From contig CAKTZI010000020.1 in assembly GCA_934635385.1 (NCBI GenBank), positions 1,820 through 65,819 on the forward strand: 64,000 nucleotides of DNA, in the 5' to 3' direction. Positions 618 to 43,800 of the stretch are shown here, piece by piece; positions within the stretch are counted from its first letter, which is position 1, and the number at the start of each line of letters is the position of its first letter. The notes under the pieces were generated by a model. It saw only the letters and a program-made list of their open reading frames with translations, was not told where the DNA came from and ran no database searches. The DNA is from an uncultured Kiritimatiellota bacterium (GTDB lineage: Bacteria > Verrucomicrobiota > Kiritimatiellia > RFP12 > UBA1067). Made by a program: the position numbers and the translations under genes.

Positions 618-1772
618 TCACGATCCCAGGACTTCTTTCGCCGCCGCGAGGACTTTGGGCTGGTCAGGGGCGAGGCCGCAGTAGAGCGGCAGGCGCACGA
701 GCGTGTCCGCATAGCGGTCGCAGTTGGGAAGAGTTGGGCGTTGAGGGGTGAGGGTTGGGACGTGAGTCTGGGAATACTTCTTGTAGAACGCCGACGAATG
801 GAGCGGCAGGTAGTGGAAGACCGTCAGGATGTCCCGCGCCTTCATCTGCGCAATGAAGTCCGTCCGCGTCGCCAAGTCCGGGAACAGCAGATAGAACATG
901 TGCGCATTGTTCGTCGCGGAAGCGGGAAGGTTGGGAAGGTTTGGAAAGTTTGGTAGGTTGGGGAGGTTTGAGAAGAAATCCCAGTAGTTCTGCCAAAGCC
1001 GCTTGCGCTCGGCCTGGATCTCGTCGAGGTGCTCCAGCTGCGCCCAGAGGAACGCCGAGACGATTTCCGTCGGCAGGAAGGAGCTGCCCGTATCGACCCA
1101 GCCGTACTTGTTCACTTCGCCCCGGAAGAACTCGGCGCGGTTCGTGCCCTTCTCCCAGATGACCTCGGCACGGCGCACGAAACGCGCGTCGTTGACGACC
1201 AGCATCCCGCCCTCGCCCGAGATGATGTTCTTCGTCTCGTGGAACGAGAACGTCGCCAAATGCCCGATCGAACCCAGCGGCCGCTTGCCATAAAACGAAT
1301 CGATGGCCTGGGCGGCGTCTTCGACGACGAGCAGGCCGTGGCGGTTCGCGATGTCCATGATCGCGTCCATGTCGCAGGCGACGCCGGCGTAGTGGACGAC
1401 GACAATGACCTTCGTCTTCGGCGTGATCAGAGACTCGATCTGCGTCTCGTCGATGTTCGGCTGGTCGGCGCGGCTGTCCGCAAAGACGATCGTCGCACCC
1501 TGTCGCACGAACGCGAGCGCGGACGAGACGAACGTGTAGGACGGCACGATCACCTCGTCGCCCGGCCCGACTTCCGTCAGGATCGCCGCCATCTCCAGCG
1601 CGTCCGTGCACGACGTCGTGAGCAGGCACTTGCGGAATCCGTACCGCTTCTCGAAATAGGCCTGGCACTTCTGCGTAAATTCGCCGTTGCCGGAAATCTT
1701 GCCGTCCGCGACGGCCTGGCGGATGTACTCCGTCTCCTTCCCGGTCATGTAGGGTCTGTTGAAATGTATCAC
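618..1772 (-). CDS. DegT/DnrJ/EryC1/StrS-family PLP-dependent sugar aminotransferase
   Basis: 384-aa ORF with family hallmarks: N-terminal MIHFNRPYMTGKETEYIRQAV, SCTDALEMA, VIVPSYTFVSSA, HYAGVACDMD and a FSFHETKNI lysine motif. Confidence 0.9.
   Translation of the reverse strand: MIHFNRPYMTGKETEYIRQAVADGKISGNGEFTQKCQAYFEKRYGFRKCLLTTSCTDALEMAAILTEVGPGDEVIVPSYTFVSSALAFVRQGATIVFADSRADQPNIDETQIESLITPKTKVIVVVHYAGVACDMDAIMDIANRHGLLVVEDAAQAIDSFYGKRPLGSIGHLATFSFHETKNIISGEGGMLVVNDARFVRRAEVIWEKGTNRAEFFRGEVNKYGWVDTGSSFLPTEIVSAFLWAQLEHLDEIQAERKRLWQNYWDFFSNLPNLPNFPNLPNLPASATNNAHMFYLLFPDLATRTDFIAQMKARDILTVFHYLPLHSSAFYKKYSQTHVPTLTPQRPTLPNCDRYADTLVRLPLYCGLAPDQPKVLAAAKEVLGS
924..972. repeat. In-frame hexanucleotide tandem repeat (GGGAAGGTT-like, 5 units) inside the DegT gene, encoding NLPNLPNFPNLPNLP
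   Basis: ggaaggttgggaaggtttggaaagtttggtaggttggggaggttt read on the plus strand; on the coding strand it gives the NLP x5 insertion. Confidence 0.7.
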
Positions 1773-3019
1773 TTGACGAGTTCCTTGTAAACCGCCTGCG
1801 TTTTGCGTGACATTATATCAAAATCGCACAGGGCGCGGACGCCCTCGCGCCTCGTCGGACGCCGCGCCGCCGCCACCGCGTCGAGGATCTCCGCCGCGCC
1901 GCCGAACCGCCGCAGCAGACGGACGGGCCGGTTTATCGCCAGCGCCTCGGCGACCGAAAGCCCGAACGACTCAGGCTTCGTCACGTTGCCCGAAACCACC
2001 ACGTCCGCAAGCGACAGGCACTCGGGTATCCGCTCCTGCAGTCCCGCGAACACCACGCGGTCGGCGACGCCGAGCGACGCGGCCAGCGCCTTCAGCTCGG
2101 CTTCGTAGGCGCGATGCCGCCTGTCCGCGCCGCCGACGATGACGAGCTTCGTCTGCGGCGCGCGCAAGACATCGCCCCACGCCGCATCCGGCGTGACGTC
2201 AAGCGAACACGCGAGATCGCGGATCAGGTGGTCGAAGCCCTTGAGCGGCGTGAGGCGGCCGACGGCCATGACCACGCAGTCGCCCGCCGCAAGCCCCCAC
2301 GCGCGCCGCAAGTCGGCGACAACGCCCGCATCAACCTTCGCCGGATCAAACCGCGCAAAATCCACCGCCGGATGAACAACCCGAATTTTTCCCCTCAAGT
2401 CCCCCGCGTCCTCTGCGTCCTTCTTGTCCTGTGCGTCCTTTCTCATTCCCCCGTAATTCGCGACGAGGTAGTCGGCCAGGAACTGCGACGGCGTGATGAT
2501 GCGGTCGCCTTTCGTCATCACCGCCGAATAGCGCGAGACGGAATTGGCCCCATGCGCGTAGGTGATGAAAGGGAGAGAAGAAATAATCGAATCATCGAAT
2601 GGCCGAATGAGAGAATGAGAGAATCGTCGAATCATCGAATCGAGCTTGCGCGCGAGAACGAAGAGCCACGCCGGAACGCGCGAATGGGCGCAAACCAAAA
2701 GCCCTTGTCGCGCGTCCCTCGCGTCCCCCTTGTCCTGTGCGTCCTCTCTGTCCTGTGCGTCCTGTCCGTCTCCGCCCGCGATCTCCCGCAGCGCATGCCG
2801 CAGTTTCCAGGCGCGCGCAAGGGCCGTCAGCGGATTCTTCGCCTTGAGGTCAAGCGCGACGTGTTCGCCGCCGTCCGCGCGAATCCGCTCGACGAGGCGG
2901 CCGCCCTTCGAGATGACGACCGACCGCCACCCGGCACGGACAAGCGCGCGGTTGAGGTCGCAGACGACGGTCTCGACGCCGCCCTGCTCCATCGCCGGGA
3001 CAAGATGCACGACCGTCAT
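1769..3019 (-). CDS. Group-1 (GT4-type) glycosyltransferase; likely true start MTVVHLVPAMEQGG, and the ORF-track N-terminal extension is spurious
   Basis: GGVETVV N-terminus and an E-x7-E motif (ESFGLSVAEAL) near the C-terminus. Contains two low-complexity inserts (GQDAQDREDAQDKGDARDAR and RKDAQDKKDAEDAGDL) encoded by gtcctgtgcgtcct-type tandem repeats at ~2404-2446 and ~2710-2775. Confidence 0.75.
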   Translation of the reverse strand: MTVVHLVPAMEQGGVETVVCDLNRALVRAGWRSVVISKGGRLVERIRADGGEHVALDLKAKNPLTALARAWKLRHALREIAGGDGQDAQDREDAQDKGDARDARQGLLVCAHSRVPAWLFVLARKLDSMIRRFSHSLIRPFDDSIISSLPFITYAHGANSVSRYSAVMTKGDRIITPSQFLADYLVANYGGMRKDAQDKKDAEDAGDLRGKIRVVHPAVDFARFDPAKVDAGVVADLRRAWGLAAGDCVVMAVGRLTPLKGFDHLIRDLACSLDVTPDAAWGDVLRAPQTKLVIVGGADRRHRAYEAELKALAASLGVADRVVFAGLQERIPECLSLADVVVSGNVTKPESFGLSVAEALAINRPVRLLRRFGGAAEILDAVAAARRPTRREGVRALCDFDIMSRKTQAVYKELVK

Positions 3020-3026
3020 ACGTCCG

Positions 3027-3437
3027 TCAGCCCCTTTCGCCCTGCCGCAGCTCCTGAAGCTTCGTCCGAATCGCAGCAACCATCTCAGCGGGAGCGTCCA
3101 GCCCCTTGACCGCACACTCCATCGGACAAATCCCCATCCGCGTCCGATTGGCGATCTGCGGCACGATCCGCTCCGCCGTCGCCGAAACGCCGTTCGCCTG
3201 AAGGAACGCGGCCGCGCCCGCACTCATGAGCGTCGCAAAGACCGCCCGCGCGCCACCCGCCACGCAGATCGCCGCCGCCGCGCGTCCGATCACCTTGTCG
3301 CAGACGCATGCTCCCGCCAATCGATTCGCTTCATAGAGCGACAGGAGCGGGCCAATGCCGCGCCCCGACGCCTGCGCAACGATGACACCCGCGCGCGCAA
3401 CGACAACGGACGCCCCCTTTTCAAGGAGCGTCCTCAT
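3027..3437 (-). CDS. Small conserved hypothetical protein (DUF1893-like?), 136 aa from MRTLLEKGASVVV; the ORF-track upstream extension is spurious
   Basis: C-terminal 136 aa has a protein-like composition (CPMECAVKGLD motif). The upstream 190 aa is Arg/Gly-rich out-of-frame-like sequence that overlaps the next gene. Confidence 0.4.
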   Translation of the reverse strand: MRTLLEKGASVVVARAGVIVAQASGRGIGPLLSLYEANRLAGACVCDKVIGRAAAAICVAGGARAVFATLMSAGAAAFLQANGVSATAERIVPQIANRTRMGICPMECAVKGLDAPAEMVAAIRTKLQELRQGERG

Positions 3438-3478: not shown

Positions 3479-4092
3479 TCAGAATCCCGCGTTCGCGATC
3501 ACCATGATCGGCAGATTCGACTCGCACACGAGGTTCAGAAGCCCGACCTGCAGTCCGTTCAGGCGCTGCGTCGCGTTGACGACGCCGAGCTGGCAGCCCG
3601 TCAGCTCGTCTGCAAAATTGAACACGCCCAGCTGACAGCCCGTGAAGTTCAGCGAGGCGTTCAGCGCGCCGGCCGCCCAGCCCGTGAAGTCGGACTGGTT
3701 GGCGTTCGCGACCGCGAACTGGACGCCGGCCGAGTCGGCGTTGTTCCAGTTGAGCGCGGCGACCTGAAAGCCCGTAAAGGCCGTGTCGATCACCGCCAGC
3801 GCAGCCTGAAAGCCGACCGCCGAGAAGTGCGCTAGGCCGACAGCCGCGAACTGGACGCCGACGAGATTCTCCTGCGCGCCGACAAGCGAGACGTCCAATC
3901 CTTCGACATCCGCATGCGCCCCGTAGAAACCGCCCAGACGCAGTCCGTAGACGTCGCTCGCCGCAAACGGCATCTGAACGGGCGCGCAAAGGCCCAGCCC
4001 AAGGGGCGACCACGCCCACTCGCCGTCGTCGGCTCGGACATCGTTCACAAGGCTAAGCGCGGACGCGAACGCCGCGACGATCAGGGACTTCT

Positions 4093-4096
<4 letters not shown>
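3479..4096 (-). CDS. Secreted repeat protein (signal peptide [17 protein letters not shown]; repeats of ~13-20 aa rich in Q, G, N and F)
   Basis: 205-aa ORF. Repeated segments are [36 protein letters not shown] and [20 protein letters not shown]. Confidence 0.55.
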
Positions 4097-6738
<2,642 letters not shown>

Positions 6739-7298: not shown

Positions 7299-7310
7299 TT
7301 ATACCAAAAT
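7299..7310 (-). promoter_or_regulatory. Extended -10 promoter TTTTGGTATAAT for purE, followed by RBS AAAGGA then ATG
   Basis: Reverse complement reads TTTTGGTATAATctccctctatccaaccaagaAAGGActtaaagATGGAACAG. Confidence 0.55.
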
Positions 7311-8549
7311 GCCGTGCGCGAGACGGCGGGCGAGGACGGGCAGCCCCGGATCGCGCGCCCCGCACGTCACGAAACAGCCGAAGTCTCCGCGATGCGCCGC
7401 GCACCAGTCGAACGCTGCGTCGAGGTCGGCGACAAGCTCCACGCGCGCACCCGCCGCCGCGTTCGTCTGCGCCACCGTCGCGATAAGCGCATCCGAGTTG
7501 ATCGAACGATCCGTCGTGCCGCCCGCATCGTAGACGGGCAGCAGCAGCAGGTGATCCTGCGGACGAATCGTCTCCACGAACATCGCCGCGAGCGCGTCCT
7601 TCATCTTGCGGAGCGGCGCGTAGCCGTGCGGACGCCAAATCGCGCACACCCCCTGCGGATACTTCTCGGCAAGCGTCGTCCACATCGCCTTCAGTTTCTC
7701 CGGGTTGTGCGCGTAGTCGTCGTAGACGGCAGGTTCGGGAGGTTTGGAAGGTTCGGGAGGCGTGATGAGCTGCAGACGGCGCTCGACGCCACGGAACGTC
7801 CTCATCGCGGCAACCGCATCGGACAGCTTCACGCCCAGCGCAACCGCCATGCGCACCGCCAGCTCGGCATTCTGCCGATTGTGCCGCCCCGGCACCGGCA
7901 CTTCCAAACCTTCCAAACCTCCCGAACCTTTCCTCCCGTCCACCACCGGCCCTTTGCAGTCTTTCACGAACGCATCGAAGACCGCGTCCATCTCCTCCTT
8001 CGAGTAGTGGTCGGCGGAGGCGTTCGTGACAATCGCCGCGTAGGGGCTGAAGGCGACGAGCGACCTGTCGCTCTCGTCCACCTCGGCAACGGCGTATTCG
8101 CCGCGCCCGAAGCGCACCGCCCCGTCCCAGCCCGGCACGTTCGCGCCGTTGACGCACAGCGGATCGAGGCCGCACGCGGCGAGGATGTGGCCGAGCATCG
8201 CCGTCACCGTCGACTTGCCGCACGTGCCGACGACGGCGACGAGCCTGTGTCCCGCGAGCGTGCGGGCAAGGGCCTTGGCGCGGTGCGTGACGGGGATGCC
8301 GAGTTCATGCGCCTTGCGCAGGCCGGGGTTCGCCTCCTCGATGGCCGTCGAGACGATCACTTCGTCCGTCGCGGCGTCGACTCCGCTGCCGTCGTCAGGA
8401 AAGACCTTCACGCCGAGCGATTCGAGAAAGCGGATGTTCGGCGTGTCCAATGTACGGTCGGCGCCCGTCACCGTGTCGCCTAGCTTCACAAGCGCCGTCG
8501 CGAGCGCGCTCATGCCCACGCCGCCGATGCCGATCAGATGTCGCTTCAC
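7299..8549 (-). CDS. murC: UDP-N-acetylmuramate--L-alanine ligase (GTG start before HLIGIGGVGMSA)
   Basis: GIGGVGMS Rossmann N-terminus, GTCGKST P-loop, GRHNRQNAELA and DDYAHNP motifs. It lies inside an artefactual 1094-aa ORF. Two in-frame repeat inserts, PPEPSKPPEP and GSGGLEGLE, correspond to inverted copies of a GGTTCGGGAGGTTTGGAAGG repeat at 7751-7780 and 7901-7937. Confidence 0.9.
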   Translation of the reverse strand: MKRHLIGIGGVGMSALATALVKLGDTVTGADRTLDTPNIRFLESLGVKVFPDDGSGVDAATDEVIVSTAIEEANPGLRKAHELGIPVTHRAKALARTLAGHRLVAVVGTCGKSTVTAMLGHILAACGLDPLCVNGANVPGWDGAVRFGRGEYAVAEVDESDRSLVAFSPYAAIVTNASADHYSKEEMDAVFDAFVKDCKGPVVDGRKGSGGLEGLEVPVPGRHNRQNAELAVRMAVALGVKLSDAVAAMRTFRGVERRLQLITPPEPSKPPEPAVYDDYAHNPEKLKAMWTTLAEKYPQGVCAIWRPHGYAPLRKMKDALAAMFVETIRPQDHLLLLPVYDAGGTTDRSINSDALIATVAQTNAAAGARVELVADLDAAFDWCAAHRGDFGCFVTCGARDPGLPVLARRLAHGILV

Positions 8550-8560
8550 CGTCCGCCCTT

Positions 8561-9592
8561 TCAGCCGCCGGCCTTGACGAGACAGGCGAGGCCCAGGACG
8601 AAGAGCGCGAGCATCGCGGCGTTGAGGACGTGCGAACGTTTCGGCGCGCCGGCAAACTCCTTCCAGACGAGGATGCCCCACAGCGCGGAGACGAGCGTCG
8701 CACCCTGTCCGAGCGCATAGGAGATCGCCGCGCCCGCCGTGCCCGCCGTCACGAAGGAGAGCAGCGTGCCCGTCGCCCAGATCGCGCCGCCGAGGACGCC
8801 GACGAGATGGATCGGCAGCGAGCCCCTGAACCAGTCCGCCCCGCGCACCGGCTCGCCCGCGACAGGCTTCCGCATCGCGAGCGTGTTGAAGACGAAGTTC
8901 GAGGCGAAGACACCGCACGCGAAGACGAAGAACCCCGTGTAGGGCGTCAGCTTCCCGGCGGCGGGCGCTGCCGTGCCCTGAAGGAAGGAGAGGTCGACGA
9001 CGCGATTGACGAGCGGCGAGAACCAGCTCATCAGGAGGCCCGCGACAATCGCGAGGACGAGTCCCTTGCGCGTGTCGTTCGGCGCGTCGGACGCACCGCC
9101 GCCCGCCGTCTGCTTCGCCTTGAACGCAAGCGCGTTGCAGACGATCGACGCGACGATCAGCCCCAGCCCCGTCCAGATCAGCGCGGGTTCGCCCTTGCCG
9201 TCCACGAAGTAGTTCGCGACCGTGCCGCCCACGAGCGCGAGGCCGACGCCGACCGGGAACGCGACGGACATCCCCGCGACCGCAATCGCCGCCGCGAGCA
9301 GGATGTTGGAGGCGTTGAAGACGATGCCGCCGAGGAACGGCCACGCCCACGACGCGCCGAAGCTCGCCCGGAGGTTCGCCGCGAAGCCCCACGCGCCATG
9401 CGCGCCCGTCGAGCCCAGCGTCAGGCCCGCGAGGACGGAGAAGAGGAGAAGGCCGATCACGTAGTCCCAGTAGAAGAGCTCGTAGCGCCAGCTCTTGCCC
9501 GCGAGCTTCTGGGTGTTGCCCCAGGAGCCCCAGCAGAGCATGGTGACGACGCAGAGAAGGACGGCGAGCGTGTAGTTCGAGCAGTAGTACAT
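8561..9592 (-). CDS. GRP-family sugar (ribose/glucose) uptake permease, RbsU-like
   Basis: 343-aa polytopic membrane protein (MLCWGSWGN..., 10 predicted TM helices) immediately downstream of the ribokinase. Confidence 0.7.
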   Translation of the reverse strand: MYYCSNYTLAVLLCVVTMLCWGSWGNTQKLAGKSWRYELFYWDYVIGLLLFSVLAGLTLGSTGAHGAWGFAANLRASFGASWAWPFLGGIVFNASNILLAAAIAVAGMSVAFPVGVGLALVGGTVANYFVDGKGEPALIWTGLGLIVASIVCNALAFKAKQTAGGGASDAPNDTRKGLVLAIVAGLLMSWFSPLVNRVVDLSFLQGTAAPAAGKLTPYTGFFVFACGVFASNFVFNTLAMRKPVAGEPVRGADWFRGSLPIHLVGVLGGAIWATGTLLSFVTAGTAGAAISYALGQGATLVSALWGILVWKEFAGAPKRSHVLNAAMLALFVLGLACLVKAGG

Positions 9593-11277: not shown

Positions 11278-11313
11278 CCTCATTCTCACTTTTTTAAAAA
11301 AGTGAGAATGAGG
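11278..11313. repeat. 36-bp perfect palindrome CCTCATTCTCACTTTTTTAAAAAAGTGAGAATGAGG between convergent genes (copy 1 of 2)
   Basis: Read directly. The second copy at 16212-16255 is also between convergent genes. Confidence 0.8.
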
Positions 11314-16211: not shown

Positions 16212-16255
16212 CCCTCCTCATTCTCACTTTTTTAAAAAAGTGAGAATGAGGAGGG
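16212..16255. repeat. 44-bp perfect palindrome CCCTCCTCATTCTCACTTTTTTAAAAAAGTGAGAATGAGGAGGG (copy 2)
   Basis: Read directly. Located between the convergent vapC (+) and the chitobiase-domain gene (-). Confidence 0.8.
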
Positions 16256-32580: not shown

Positions 32581-33033
32581 ATGTTCTACAAACGGAGCAT
32601 CTGGGCGATCGTCGCCCTCGCGATGGCGCTTGCCGCCGCCACGTTGTTTGTGGTCAGGGAGGCCCCCTACTCACGGAACTTCTGGTTGGAGCTGACACTG
32701 CTGATGGTCGCGCTCGCGGCCGCCGGATGGCAGGGGGCGTGTTCCGTCGACCATCCGGGCTCGTCGCTGCCGTTTCCGCTGGCGAGTCTGCGTCTCACGC
32801 TGCGGTATGCCGTCTTCGTCCTGCTCATGGGCGTCCCCGTCCTCCTCGACATCAACATCCGGTTCAAGTACTATGCCCTGGCGCACGGCTTCGGACTGGG
32901 GCTTTGGCTGGCCGCGCTCATCGCCCTGCGGATGGGGACGCATGCGGTCGACGAGCAGGATGCATCAGACCGTCAGCGGACAAAGGCGCAGCGCGAACAT
33001 TCGATAGATTCATCACCAGAATATTGTAATTAA
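32581..33033 (+). CDS. Four-TM membrane protein, hypothetical
   Basis: Starts 3 nt after the SPFH gene stop. Hydrophobic helices. Confidence 0.45.
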   Translation: MFYKRSIWAIVALAMALAAATLFVVREAPYSRNFWLELTLLMVALAAAGWQGACSVDHPGSSLPFPLASLRLTLRYAVFVLLMGVPVLLDINIRFKYYALAHGFGLGLWLAALIALRMGTHAVDEQDASDRQRTKAQREHSIDSSPEYCN

Positions 33034-33077
33034 CTCCGATGATTATGGCTCTCGCGCGGCCTACGGCTCGGAGTTAA
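33029..33077. repeat. Hairpin repeat ttaactccgaTGATTATGGCTCTCGCGCGGCCTACGGCtcggagttaa
   Basis: Same family as 455-615 and 27757-27792. Confidence 0.55.
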
Positions 33078-40806: not shown

Positions 40807-40850
40807 CATATCACCCAAATATGCCCATGTTTCTTGTGACTTTCTTGCGA

Positions 40851-43800
40851 CTATTTGCGCCTTTCCGCGCGGATTTTCTCAATCAGTTTTGCCTTGCCGC
40901 GCTCGATGTCGGAGAGCAATGAGGCATCGACTTCATGGCCCTCCTTCTCGTCCCTCATCGCCCTTGCCTCGTCCCTGCGGATCTGCGCAATGTCGGCGGC
41001 GATGTCCTCGCGCACGCCCTCGCGCATGAGCGGATTTTCGGCAACGATGCTGTCGAGCAGAAGCCTCCTGTTCTGTTCGTCGAGAAGCTCGTCTTTCTCG
41101 ATGGCGTCGTATTCTCTCTTGGAGTCCAGGAATCGATTGGAGAGAATGGCGTAATCGTCTTTGCGGTACGTCCCCTTGCCGATGCCGAACATCGTCAGCC
41201 CCGCGCCGAGGAATGCCGTAGCCCACGCACGGTCTTCAATGCCGTTCTCGTAGATGGAATGCCCCGCATCGCGGAGCGAGATCGGCGCAAACGACAGCAA
41301 CAGTTCGGCCGCGCCGTAGTCCTGCCCTGTGTAGTCCTTCCCGGACAGTGCGGAGAAAGCATTGCTCACGAGCGGCGTGAGACGGCCCTTTGCGAAATGG
41401 GCAACCTCTCCGAACATGTCGCGCACTTTGGCCTGTTTCCCAGTAGCAGTCTCGTATGCGCCCGTCACAAGTCGGTTGCCGAGGCGCAGAAACGCCACGG
41501 AGCCGCCCGTGAGGTCAAGCTGCGTGTGCCGTATGCGTGGTGCAACGAGCATTTGCAGCCGTTTCACGGGGCCGGCATGGGCGAATTCGTCCTTCTGGTC
41601 GTCGGTCGCGAACAATGCCGTGAGCAGAGAGCCAAGTAGAATCGCGCCAAGATTCGAGCGCACGAATTCGCCGAGCCCAATCCTCGACATTGTAAGACGT
41701 TCCTTGAACGTACCCGAACCGTCCTCTTCCGCACTTGCCGTCCACGAATGCCATACCTGATACCCGATGAGCCGCTTCAACTGCGAATCGACAAGGCCAG
41801 GAGCCCAGAACACTTTGCCAAGTATGCGCCGGTTGTCCTTTGAGAGCGTGCCGGAACCGTTCATGACGTTTATCATGTCGCAAAGCATCTTCTTCTGGAA
41901 TACGGTTGCCCCGCCGGGGAAGAGTTTCGGATCGTTGACGATCGTGGAATAGAGGCTTGCGGACACGGCGTTGATGTATGTCGCATAGAGCCGGTCAGAG
42001 TTCTCTATGGACGTGCCGTAGAACGGAATATCGGTAAAGCGGAGCGCCTTGCCGCCAATCGTAAACGGCTTGTCGATTGCGTCAAACAACTCCACGCGCT
42101 CGCCGCGACTGGTCGAATCGGAAACCTTCTTCCAACGAAGCCAGCCGTTGTCCACGGCCTCCTTCACGGAAGCGTCGGAGAGAAGATCGAGTTCTATGTT
42201 CTCCGCGTTGATCCTGCTCTTGAACGCCGAAATCGTCTTTGCGAAGTTCGCCGCAACGATTTTCGGATGCGCCATGAGGATCGTACCCGTCTGGTTGCCT
42301 ACCTGCGTGAAGTCGAGCGAAGCCGTAGCCATCTTCCACACGCCGTCCACGAAACGGTAGGCATCGCCCATGAAACGGACGAACTTGGGCTTGCGGGCAT
42401 CCGCAGCTTCACGCCGCAAGTCGGCAAGCTTGCGGTGGGCCCTGTTCATCTGCTCGGCCATCGCCTCGTACCGCTTCTGCATTTCCGGCGGCATGGGCGG
42501 CTGCGGCTTCTTCTGCGGGCGCAGGTCGCCACGGACAATGCGTTCGGCAAGACGCGCAATCGCCTTTTCGCGATTTGCCATCTTGCGAGCGTTGTAGGCG
42601 GAAAGCTCTTCCGGCGTCAGGCCGAACTCGTACTTCGCCTTTTTGAGTTCGCGAATCTGGTTGCGCACCTCGGACAGCCTTTCTCGCAGAGCGTCAAGCG
42701 TGGGCGACTCGGCCCTTGGACGCCTTGCCTTCTTCGAGAAGTCGCCGGAACGCGCGCGGTCGAGATCGGCCAGCGCGTGTTCAAGTTCCCTGCCGAGAAG
42801 CCGTTCCGCAAGCTTCACGCGCTGCGCATCGGTCATCCCATGTTCAGTCCTGAAAAGCTCGTCATAGGTCTTCTGGAGTTCGTCCTTCCGCTTTCTCAGT
42901 TCGCGCAGTTCGATGTCCTCCATCACCGTGCGCTCTCGCCCGGGGATCTTCTCCCCCGTCTCGATTGCACGTTCAAGGTCTGCGATGCGGTTCTTCACGC
43001 GCGTCTTTGCGGATTCGAGGACGCCCTTCAGCCTCCGTGCGTCGCGTCCCGCATCCGGGACCTCCTTCTTGCGCTCCTGTACCTGCTTCTGCAGGTTTCG
43101 CGTCGTGTCGGACGGCTCGTCGCGCACCATGCCCGTAAGGGGCGGCATGGTGTTATTCTCGTCCATCCAGTCCATCTGCCGCTTGAGGCGAGACTGGGAA
43201 CGCAGGTCGTTCATGAGGCGCTGCGCCTCGTAGCGGGATTGCCGGAAGTTGTGGCCGAATCCCGTGAGCGCGTCGCGTACCTGATTCTCGTCCACGCCGT
43301 CCATGAACGGCGAGATGTCCTCCACGATTGCCTTGATGCACTCGTCTTCCGTGATGTCGGGATTCTCGAAGCAGTGGTATTCTCCGATTGCGCGGAGCCA
43401 CTTGCCCCAAGCCGGGTACTGCTGATCGGAAAGTCCGACAAGTGTGCCGCCGACCTCCGCAGAGCCGACCTCGATCTGGGCAAGCGCGTCGTTGTAGTTC
43501 CGCATGACGCGCTTCACCTCGTCACCGGGATTGCGCTCCGCCACCTTGCGAATCCTGTCGCCTCGTTTGATCTGCTCGACAATCTTCTCCGCCTGTGCCT
43601 TCAAACGTGCGGTGGCGAGATCCCTCCCCTCTTCGTCAAGCGTGGCAAATCCGTTGGCAATCTCCCGAATCTTCGCGTCCATTTCAGGCGCGATCTTGTC
43701 GGCACCGCCGAGGATTGCGGCCACCTGTCCCGAAATGCCGGCATACGAGAAGTCCGTCTGGTCGATGAGTCCACGGTTCGAGCGCAGCCGACGGCCAGCC

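Follow-up and report, generated by a model that had tools for sequence, protein, structure and literature searches.

The stretch analysed here, a window of 64,000 nucleotides (nt) from an uncultured Kiritimatiellota bacterium (assembly GCA_934635385.1, contig CAKTZI010000020.1, positions 1,820 to 65,819), begins with 8.6 kb of minus-strand genes that encode a DegT/WecE-type sugar aminotransferase, a GT4-family glycosyltransferase, a DUF1893 protein, a protein of no family, GyrA, PurE and a MurC-like Mur ligase. Three of these genes, those for the DegT/WecE, GT4 and MurC-like enzymes, carry between them six short tandem arrays of 8- or 9-nt units inside their coding sequence, and it is the nature and origin of these arrays that concern us here.

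The window was compared with 80 genomic loci that encode MurC-like relatives, all from uncultured Kiritimatiellae of human, ruminant and other gut samples; some of these loci bear the label Lentisphaerae or Verrucomicrobia, and bins with wrong labels account for a few. The closest relative, locus L089, has the same gene order, and its MurC-like protein shares 94% amino acid (aa) identity with that of the window (alignment A1; the best local BLASTP alignment gives 88%). Logan contig L001, an independent assembly, encodes an identical DegT protein and carries the GT4 allele of the window. A literature search found no description of repeats in Kiritimatiellae.

Six tandem arrays in three genes

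Tandem Repeats Finder (TRF), applied to the 64 kb of the source genome that the window covers, called six short tandem arrays, all within three intact minus-strand open reading frames (ORFs; Table 1). The arrays are real and chance is excluded: 30 block shuffles of the window yielded not a single array at a threshold cleared by five of the six real ones, and matches to the unit motifs numbered 15 against a shuffle mean of 4.6, and 11 against 2.9, in both instances above every shuffle. Close matches (those with no or one mismatch, together with two 2-mismatch matches inside arrays) are found only in these genes, in the first 8 kb; the other 2-mismatch matches are spread over the whole window.

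The initial annotation had reported repeats in these three genes, listed five of the arrays and taken the repeated unit for a hexamer. The repeats and the five arrays stand, but the period-8 array of the GT4 gene (site B) had been missed, and the unit called by TRF is a 9-mer in the five arrays other than site B. The translations then given (NLPNLPNFPNLPNLP, DAQDK-type tracts, PPEPSKPPEP and GSGGLEGLE) match the ORFs, which are intact, as the remark that frame is preserved requires. The same cannot be said of the statement that the unit length is a multiple of three and so precludes ON/OFF switching, which fails for GT4 site B and for the wider clade, where periods of 7 and 8 are together the commonest.

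The arrays of the window are imperfect, with 74-87% within-array matches (TRF). Those of the DegT and MurC-like genes are strand-asymmetric, the rarer of the letters G and C occurring 0 to 4 times on a given strand, as is true of most arrays of the clade; GT4 sites A and C differ, their plus strand being free of A. Near-identical stretches of 20-29 nt recur at three sites of the window in different frames and orientations. This agrees with the earlier view of a DNA-level repeat used in opposite directions, the same unit being read in three frames and both orientations and the two MurC arrays being inverted.

One further short array of low GC content lies outside the three genes, the only one of its kind in the window: an intergenic period-11 array at 40830-40865 (TTTCTTGCGAC x3.4, GC 0.42).

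Table 1. Array-bearing genes of the window, their tandem arrays and the spacer of the inverted pair
Feature	Position	Strand	Unit	Translation	Basis
DegT/WecE-type sugar aminotransferase, 384 aa	618..1772	-			ORF; Pfam PF01041, E 7e-81
DegT array	924..968	-	GGGAAGGTT x5.0, 9-nt unit; coding AACCTTCCC-like	NLPNLPNFPNLPNLP	TRF, 83% matches
GT4-family glycosyltransferase, 416 aa	1769..3019	-			Pfam Glycos_transf_1 and Glyco_transf_4; orthologue alignment
GT4 site C	2406..2439	-	GCGTCCTCT x3.8, 9-nt unit; coding GAC GCA CAG GAC AAG-like	RKDAQDKKDAEDAGD	TRF
GT4 site B	2582..2641	-	Period 8, 7.5 units = 60 nt, GC 0.40	SMIRRFSHSLIRPFDDSIIS	TRF
GT4 site A	2721..2770	-	9/18-nt period; unit family and orientation of site C	GQDAQDREDAQDKGDARDA	TRF
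MurC-like Mur ligase, 416 aa (short)	7299..8549	-			Pfam Mur_ligase N, M and C domains
MurC site 2, after GVERRLQ	7727..7760	-	CGGGAGGTT x3.8; coding CCTCCCGAACCTTCCAAACCTCCCGAACCT	PPEPSKPPEP	TRF
Conserved spacer between the inverted arrays	7761..7900	-		VPVPGRHNRQNAELAV...RTFRGVERRLQLIT	Alignment A1; inverted repeat I2
MurC site 1, just before PGRHNRQNA	7901..7930	-	CTTCCAAAC x3.3; coding GGTTCGGGAGGTTTGGAAGGTTTGGAAG	GSGGLEGLE	TRF

The inverted array pair of the MurC-like gene

The MurC-like protein scores 269.9 bits against the NCBIfam murC model (in two stretches), under the cut-off of 335.1, and in several relatives (L082, L084, L085 and L088) its gene adjoins the GT4 and DegT genes; a role as the housekeeping MurC is therefore not certain. 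Its 120 close homologues range from 399 to 453 aa in length, with the variation concentrated at three fixed positions that hold repetitive, mutually unrelated peptides.

Both arrays of the window's MurC-like gene had been placed in loops that flank the conserved GRHNxxNA motif. An AlphaFold model of the protein (mean predicted local distance difference test score, pLDDT, 84.8) agrees as to the loops, with lowered pLDDT over residues 211-220 (57) and 251-270 (66-70), the two array positions, which are modelled entirely as coil. As to the flanking, it holds for site 1, whereas site 2 follows some 47 residues downstream. About 50 of 81 orthologues have short, non-repeat loops at these positions (at site 1 GETYR or some 10 aa, at site 2 a RYGTRV-like turn of 6 aa), and in some orthologues site 2 is occupied by an intermediate non-repeat insertion, for example RHTPPGASPAV.

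The two arrays are mutually reverse-complementary, with 29-nt arms that are 93% complementary and lie 141 nt apart (inverted score 24, direct score 5). No other arrays of the window combine into an inverted repeat, and the spacer of this one is conserved coding sequence. Reverse complementarity of sites 1 and 2 occurs in three unit families, namely GGTTTGGAA (the window, L004, L089 and L084), GATTGTTC (L082) and GGTTGCGR (L083), with inverted scores of 24-42 against direct scores of about 5; L008 is a decayed fourth case, and in L082 a site 3 additionally repeats site 2 in direct orientation. Both sub-clades of the gene tree include such cases, so that the arms have changed unit together at least twice, which suggests that the two arms evolve together. 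Nothing else in the system is as unusual as these coupled inverted arrays.

RNA folding predicts stems of 26-64 bp around the conserved 141-160 nt in six genomes (z -5.8 to -11.8), that of the window being 26 bp long. In L002, L085, L087 and L088 the arrays at the two sites are non-complementary (z about 0), and L003 has one array only. The arms are also unmatched in length, at 3.3 versus 3.8, 4.1 versus 8 and 9.1 versus 4.6 units. At the level of the protein, an (x-L-E)n pattern is kept at site 1 in many orthologues despite their different DNA units.

A different kind of in-frame repeat occupies the same loop in L058, where site 1 of the MurC-like gene (locus match 8001-9332) consists of two tandem 57-nt units, each with a hairpin (GCGACAGGAGTGTCGC), translated ...ATGVSRPLCSVDASNGG ATGVSRPHCSIDASNGG...

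The GT4 and DegT/WecE arrays

The three arrays of the GT4 gene differ in how widely they are found. Only the nearest relatives share sites A and C with the window: the site C array occurs only in the window, L001 and L005 and, in shorter form, in L089, and is absent from L006-L008, L011 and L016, and site A adds a net 20 aa or so in comparison with L006-L008 and more distant orthologues. At site B, five unit types, or nothing, are found across the genomes; the window has the CATTCGAT type, which it has in common with L006-L008, and at the same position L089 has CCAAACCTY, L011 TCAAACCT, L082 AATCAGTC and L005 no array at all.

Elsewhere in the window, a perfect palindrome without a loop, (CCCTC)CTCATTCTCACTTTTTT/AAAAAAGTGAGAATGAG(GAGGG), occurs twice, 5 kb apart, at 11278-11313 and 16212-16255. 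Its arm motif CTCATTCTC is also present inside the period-8 GT4 array (…TCTCATTCTCTCATTC…).

The DegT protein scores 539 bits with the NCBIfam model for dTDP-4-amino-4,6-dideoxygalactose transaminase (cut-off 375), and its array fills the linker that precedes ATNNAHMFY. E. coli WecE (4piw) aligns across the tract with just one one-residue gap. Among Kiritimatiellae orthologues the linker is either a non-repetitive segment of about 17 aa ending in LPxIP or is made of different repeats. The tract is thus a same-length overwrite of an ancestral linker, with no net insertion, as judged from the alignments. In this respect the proposal that conserved enzymes had received insertions must be divided: the orthologue alignments agree with it for the MurC-like and GT4 proteins, whose tracts are absent from distant orthologues, but not for DegT, where the replacement is of the same length.

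The codons of the ancestral P(K/N)LPV(I/V)P segment resemble the array unit (CCAAACCTCCC in L006; CCA AAC CTC CCC), and LPNLPNLP-like linkers are also found in other, 80%-identical DegT lineages (P0198, P0200, P0203 and P0206). A second variable site of the DegT gene, the G-rich stretch at 720-775 (TLTPQRPTLPN), contains no repeat by TRF in the window; in L089 a 21-nt-period array is found there.

Occurrence and turnover across the clade

In the gene tree the arrays are a derived trait of one gut and rumen clade of Kiritimatiellae that comprises two sub-clades. Its loop positions hold units of 7-9 nt, the order of frequency being 8, 9, 7. The arrays have a GC content of 0.53 against 0.63 in their flanks, and one strand is usually almost free of G; the G-poor strand coincides with the sense strand in no clearly biased manner (20 versus 12). 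Array density is 16.7 per 100 kb in the array-bearing clade and 3.0 in the other Kiritimatiellae loci, figures that are biased by the gathering of the loci around the MurC-like gene. About 40 of 45 clade arrays, and all six of the window, lie inside ORFs, a share close to the coding fraction of a bacterial genome, from which it follows that coding sequence is not avoided by the arrays.

Unit number varies between related genomes, as the initial annotation had anticipated. Between the window and L089 it differs at MurC site 1 (3.3 versus 5.9), at MurC site 2 (3.8 versus 8, with 8 likewise in L004) and in DegT (5 versus 6.7). In the GT4 gene, site C is longer in the window and shorter in L089, and site B differs in the unit itself. 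The 81 MurC-like sequences, and every DegT and GT4 orthologue examined, are in frame, and independent samples share identical alleles (P0001 on six contigs; L001).

Individual unit families are found in more than one gene of the same genome. The CCAAACCTY family yields NLP in DegT, SKP or PEP at MurC site 2, QTF or QTS in the GT4 gene of L089 and, antisense, GLE at MurC site 1, thereby using all three frames and both strands; it occupies three sites in the window and four sites, in three genes, within 21 kb of L089. Similarly, L088 has CCTCATC in three of its genes, and L051 and L085 have GAGAAGTG and AGGTGA, respectively, in two genes each. Because the families recur across genes, frames and orientations of one genome, they are defined at the level of the DNA. 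Array pairs share a family in 33% of cases within a locus and in 10.8% between loci, the latter figure still including orthologous sites; this argues against purely local, independent origins.

The CCTCATC heptamer is present in at least four genes of two genomes (L088 13723-13795, with 10.4 near-perfect units in a DegT-like gene; L088 2129-2158 and 5217-5250; L089 6206-6253), as well as at MurC site 2 of L002 and L087, and is translated SSLIPHP in any frame. It is the clade's best candidate for frame-shifting slippage.

Other repeat types enter the same loops. Palindromic insertions that resemble repetitive extragenic palindromic (REP) sequences or transposable elements of the miniature inverted-repeat type (MITEs), with 10-nt units, lie in frame in L005, at MurC site 1 (termini TTTTTAACCACGGAT...ATTCGTGGTTAAAAA) and in DegT, and in L007, in DegT. 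In L036, one of the more distant Kiritimatiellae, inverted pairs of 9-nt tandem arrays at 3339-3403, 3614-3698 and 4668-4735 (for example ACAGGATTA x2.9 followed by AATCCTGTA x2.9) constitute palindromes of tandem units, partly in open frames.

Origin of the arrays

We judge it probable, if by no great measure, that the arrays are neutral or selfish repeat DNA, a lineage-specific and dispersed population of 7-9 nt units that resides in coding loops of conserved enzymes. Replication slippage would lengthen and shorten the arrays, and polymerase template switching or ectopic gene conversion would copy and homogenise them between nearby, and probably also distant, sites. Copying of this kind could give rise to the inverted copies of the MurC-like gene, which are separated by 140-160 nt, to the direct copies in the L082 MurC-like gene and in GT4, and to the presence of one family at sites kilobases apart. 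Purifying selection would purge those variants that break the frame or fall outside a tolerant loop. The peptides would then be passengers with no function of their own, and in some lineages the repeat DNA would decay to ordinary protein sequence, as the PLDAWRFGPLE segment of L006-L008 appears to have done.

Several observations weigh against this account. Nothing points directly to mobility: no target-site duplication or conserved flank was seen at any array in the flank listing, and no associated enzyme gene was found, although no search for co-distributed transposases of the REP-associated tyrosine (RAYT) type or reverse transcriptases was made. A purely random coloniser would not be expected to settle, as the window's six arrays all do, in three envelope-sugar genes. 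A hint of selection on the peptide comes from MurC site 1, where the (x-L-E)n pattern is retained. The DegT array may have arisen in place, given its ancestral length, the unit-like codons of the linker and the LPN linkers of other lineages. Finally, we considered whether site 2 of the MurC-like gene was copied in inverted form from site 1, VDGR flank included, since the PAVY codons at site 2 resemble the reverse complement of VDGR; we set this aside as a hint only, the complementarity of the two flanks being not significantly higher within a genome than across genomes (permutation p 0.14).

In-place origin can be extended from DegT to all of the arrays, with each tract having slipped from local sequence in an evolving low-complexity loop and the likeness of the units reflecting a shared mutational or compositional bias. 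It is plausible for DegT, on the grounds just given, and the appearance of (xLE)n at MurC site 1 across different DNA units and the intermediate insertions at MurC site 2 are also what it would predict. It accords poorly, however, with the shared families and with the replacement of units at GT4 site B. Near-identical stretches of 20-29 nt stand at three sites in different frames and orientations, L089 carries CCAAACCTY at four sites, at one of which (GT4 site B) relatives have an unrelated unit, MurC sites 1 and 2 are complementary through three units, and family sharing is three times higher within a locus; as a general explanation we consider in-place origin unlikely.

Envelope-sugar genes are a classic setting for contingency loci, and the confinement of all six arrays to such genes could mean that slippage switches surface-polysaccharide enzymes between variants, or ON and OFF, in the gut. 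Copy number does vary among relatives, and at GT4 site B, with its period of 8, or in the many relatives with perfect 7- or 8-nt arrays (such as CCTCATC x10.4 in L088), a change of one unit would shift the frame. The 9-nt arrays, in contrast, cannot shift it, and imperfect arrays (74-87% matches) have lowered slippage; no OFF allele was seen among the orthologues examined, the same alleles recur in independent samples, and the MurC-like ligase is cytoplasmic and conserved across the class. A switching role for the 9-mers is thus unlikely, and we regard the contingency account as a whole as highly unlikely. More unlikely still is that the inverted pair of the MurC-like gene is a functional structure (an mRNA stem, a DNA cruciform or a recombination substrate) around the 141-nt segment and is selected for pairing. 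The predicted stems in six genomes, and the maintenance of complementarity through three unrelated units in two sub-clades, would be explained by it, but four genomes have non-complementary arrays, a fifth has a single array, arm lengths are unmatched and Rfam finds no structured-RNA match in the window; moreover, homogenisation by template switching (PMC8604942) accounts for the pattern without function. An assembly or sequencing artefact, which might be suspected because metagenome assemblies can collapse or mis-join repeats, has practically no probability, the arrays being 30-60 nt long, shorter than assembly k-mers, and lying in open ORFs. Independent assemblies rule it out, as the same DegT and GT4 alleles are present in the independent Logan assembly and related arrays in dozens of independent assemblies from different projects.

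The coupling of the MurC arms also admits a more far-reaching reading, in which the arrays are not passive and the arms are jointly rewritten, either by an active, repeat-specific homogenising process or under selection for the 26-64-bp stem around the 141-nt PGxHNxxNA-GVERRLQ segment. Taken together we hold these two possibilities to be distinctly unlikely. The selected stem would amount to a structural switch, in mRNA or DNA, made of coding tandem repeats; the active process, in its boldest form, would imply a dedicated enzyme of the clade that writes G-free short repeats into genes.

If the arrays are indeed dispersed repeat DNA, a common gut and rumen clade tolerates 7-9 nt repeats inside conserved enzymes, whereas elsewhere in bacteria such repeats are depleted from coding sequence, and the clade would be a second natural system, besides Rickettsia, in which repeat DNA makes and remodels protein loops. 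Orthologous sites at which units have been replaced over short evolutionary distances would also be suited to tests of template switching and ectopic conversion in bacteria. In practical terms, the tracts lower the scores of profile hidden Markov models, the MurC-like protein falling under the NCBIfam murC cut-off, and they vary protein length; they could serve as strain markers in metagenomes.

Other features of the window and of the metagenome scan

Directly downstream of the DegT stop codon, at 454-616, lies an element of 163 bp whose ends are inverted arms of 38 nt (TAACTCCGAT...ATCGGAGTTA, 87% complementary) and which has no Rfam match. A short hairpin at about 33028-33075 has the termini of this element (TTAACTCCGA...TCGGAGTTAA), and the two look like a small MITE family, separate from the arrays.

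Between the genes for the DUF1893 protein and GyrA, the minus-strand ORF at 3479-4096 encodes a 205-aa protein without a Pfam family, the position of which is conserved in L001 and L089. From about 11000 to 35000, GC content drops from 64-70% to 50-59% over some 24 kb, interrupted near 17-19, 24-25 and 32-33 kb, where GC is briefly high again; an island acquired by horizontal transfer, or one distinct in composition, could account for this region.

A scan of public metagenome contigs for CCAAACCTTCCAAACCTYCC yielded more than 120 heterogeneous matches, mostly non-coding, many of which come from an unrelated dispersed element in peat metagenomes. This element, agaaaagctt(CCAAACCTT)2CCaaagtRcRct, is present on dozens of peat and soil metagenome contigs (among L091-L205, for example L092, L094, L113 and L114), sometimes twice per contig; it belongs to an unrelated organism and includes the same 9-mer.

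Comparison with known systems

The closest behavioural parallel is with the Rickettsia palindromic elements (RPEs), described in PMC10969869, in its summary of Ogata et al., as selfish repeat DNA of about 150 bp that lies in frame in protein-coding genes and has an internal palindrome and a family-specific peptide. Like these elements, the Kiritimatiellae arrays are probably dispersed repeat DNA in unrelated conserved enzymes, they keep the frame, they occupy sites compatible with the fold and they vary in presence and absence among related genomes. They differ from the elements so described in that those of the window are 30-60 nt of direct 8-9 nt units with no palindrome within one array, in that no peptide is conserved, CCAAACCTY being read in all frames and on both strands, and in the rapid turnover of both unit number and unit sequence. 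The likeness to RPEs drawn in the initial annotation is apt for the clade, in view of the palindromic insertions in L005 and L007, but the tracts of the window are not of RPE type. Membership of the arrays among RPEs, MITEs or REP sequences was rejected, as they have no internal palindrome, fixed peptide, terminal inverted repeats or target-site duplication; the resemblance is one of behaviour, not of membership.

In the form of their units the arrays are similar to the GGGAATC heptamers of Xanthomonas, the GGGGAYT heptamers of Nostoc and the short tandemly repeated repetitive (STRR) sequences of cyanobacteria, which are dispersed, are under-represented in ORFs and spread by a mechanism given as unknown (PMC4692102). 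These systems have in common with ours units of 6-9 nt, G-rich and G-poor strands, both orientations, variable unit number and high-GC or large genomes, but they favour non-coding DNA (PMC4692102), whereas about 40 of 45 arrays here are in ORFs. A further difference is the coexistence, in the Kiritimatiellae, of several unit families that are unrelated and take one another's place at a single site.

For the inverted pair the relevant precedent is template switching, an established mutational process that homogenises the arms of inverted repeats (PMC8604942, PMC7202029). As in quasipalindromes, nearby inverted coding arms stay complementary while their sequence changes (PMC8604942, PMC7202029, PMC7954356). 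Known cases have short arms and spacers of tens of nt; in the MurC-like genes, for which the process is a proposed one, the arms are arrays of 30-100 nt and the spacer is about 141-160 nt of essential coding sequence.

The arrays are similar to contingency loci in that they are repeats in envelope-sugar genes of a gut bacterium, with variable unit number and with 7- and 8-nt units that could shift the frame. Classical contingency tracts are perfect repeats of 1-7 nt that toggle the frame, whereas the main arrays of the window are 9-nt and imperfect and were in frame wherever they were found. A eukaryotic counterpart is the AT-rich Plasmodium falciparum, whose conserved proteins contain low-complexity insertions, mostly triplet-based runs of Asn and Lys. 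There, as here, length-variable tracts occur lineage-wide at loops of conserved enzymes and reflect repeat dynamics at the level of the DNA; the Kiritimatiellae differ in being high-GC bacteria whose tracts are built of 7-9 nt units belonging to discrete families common to several genes.

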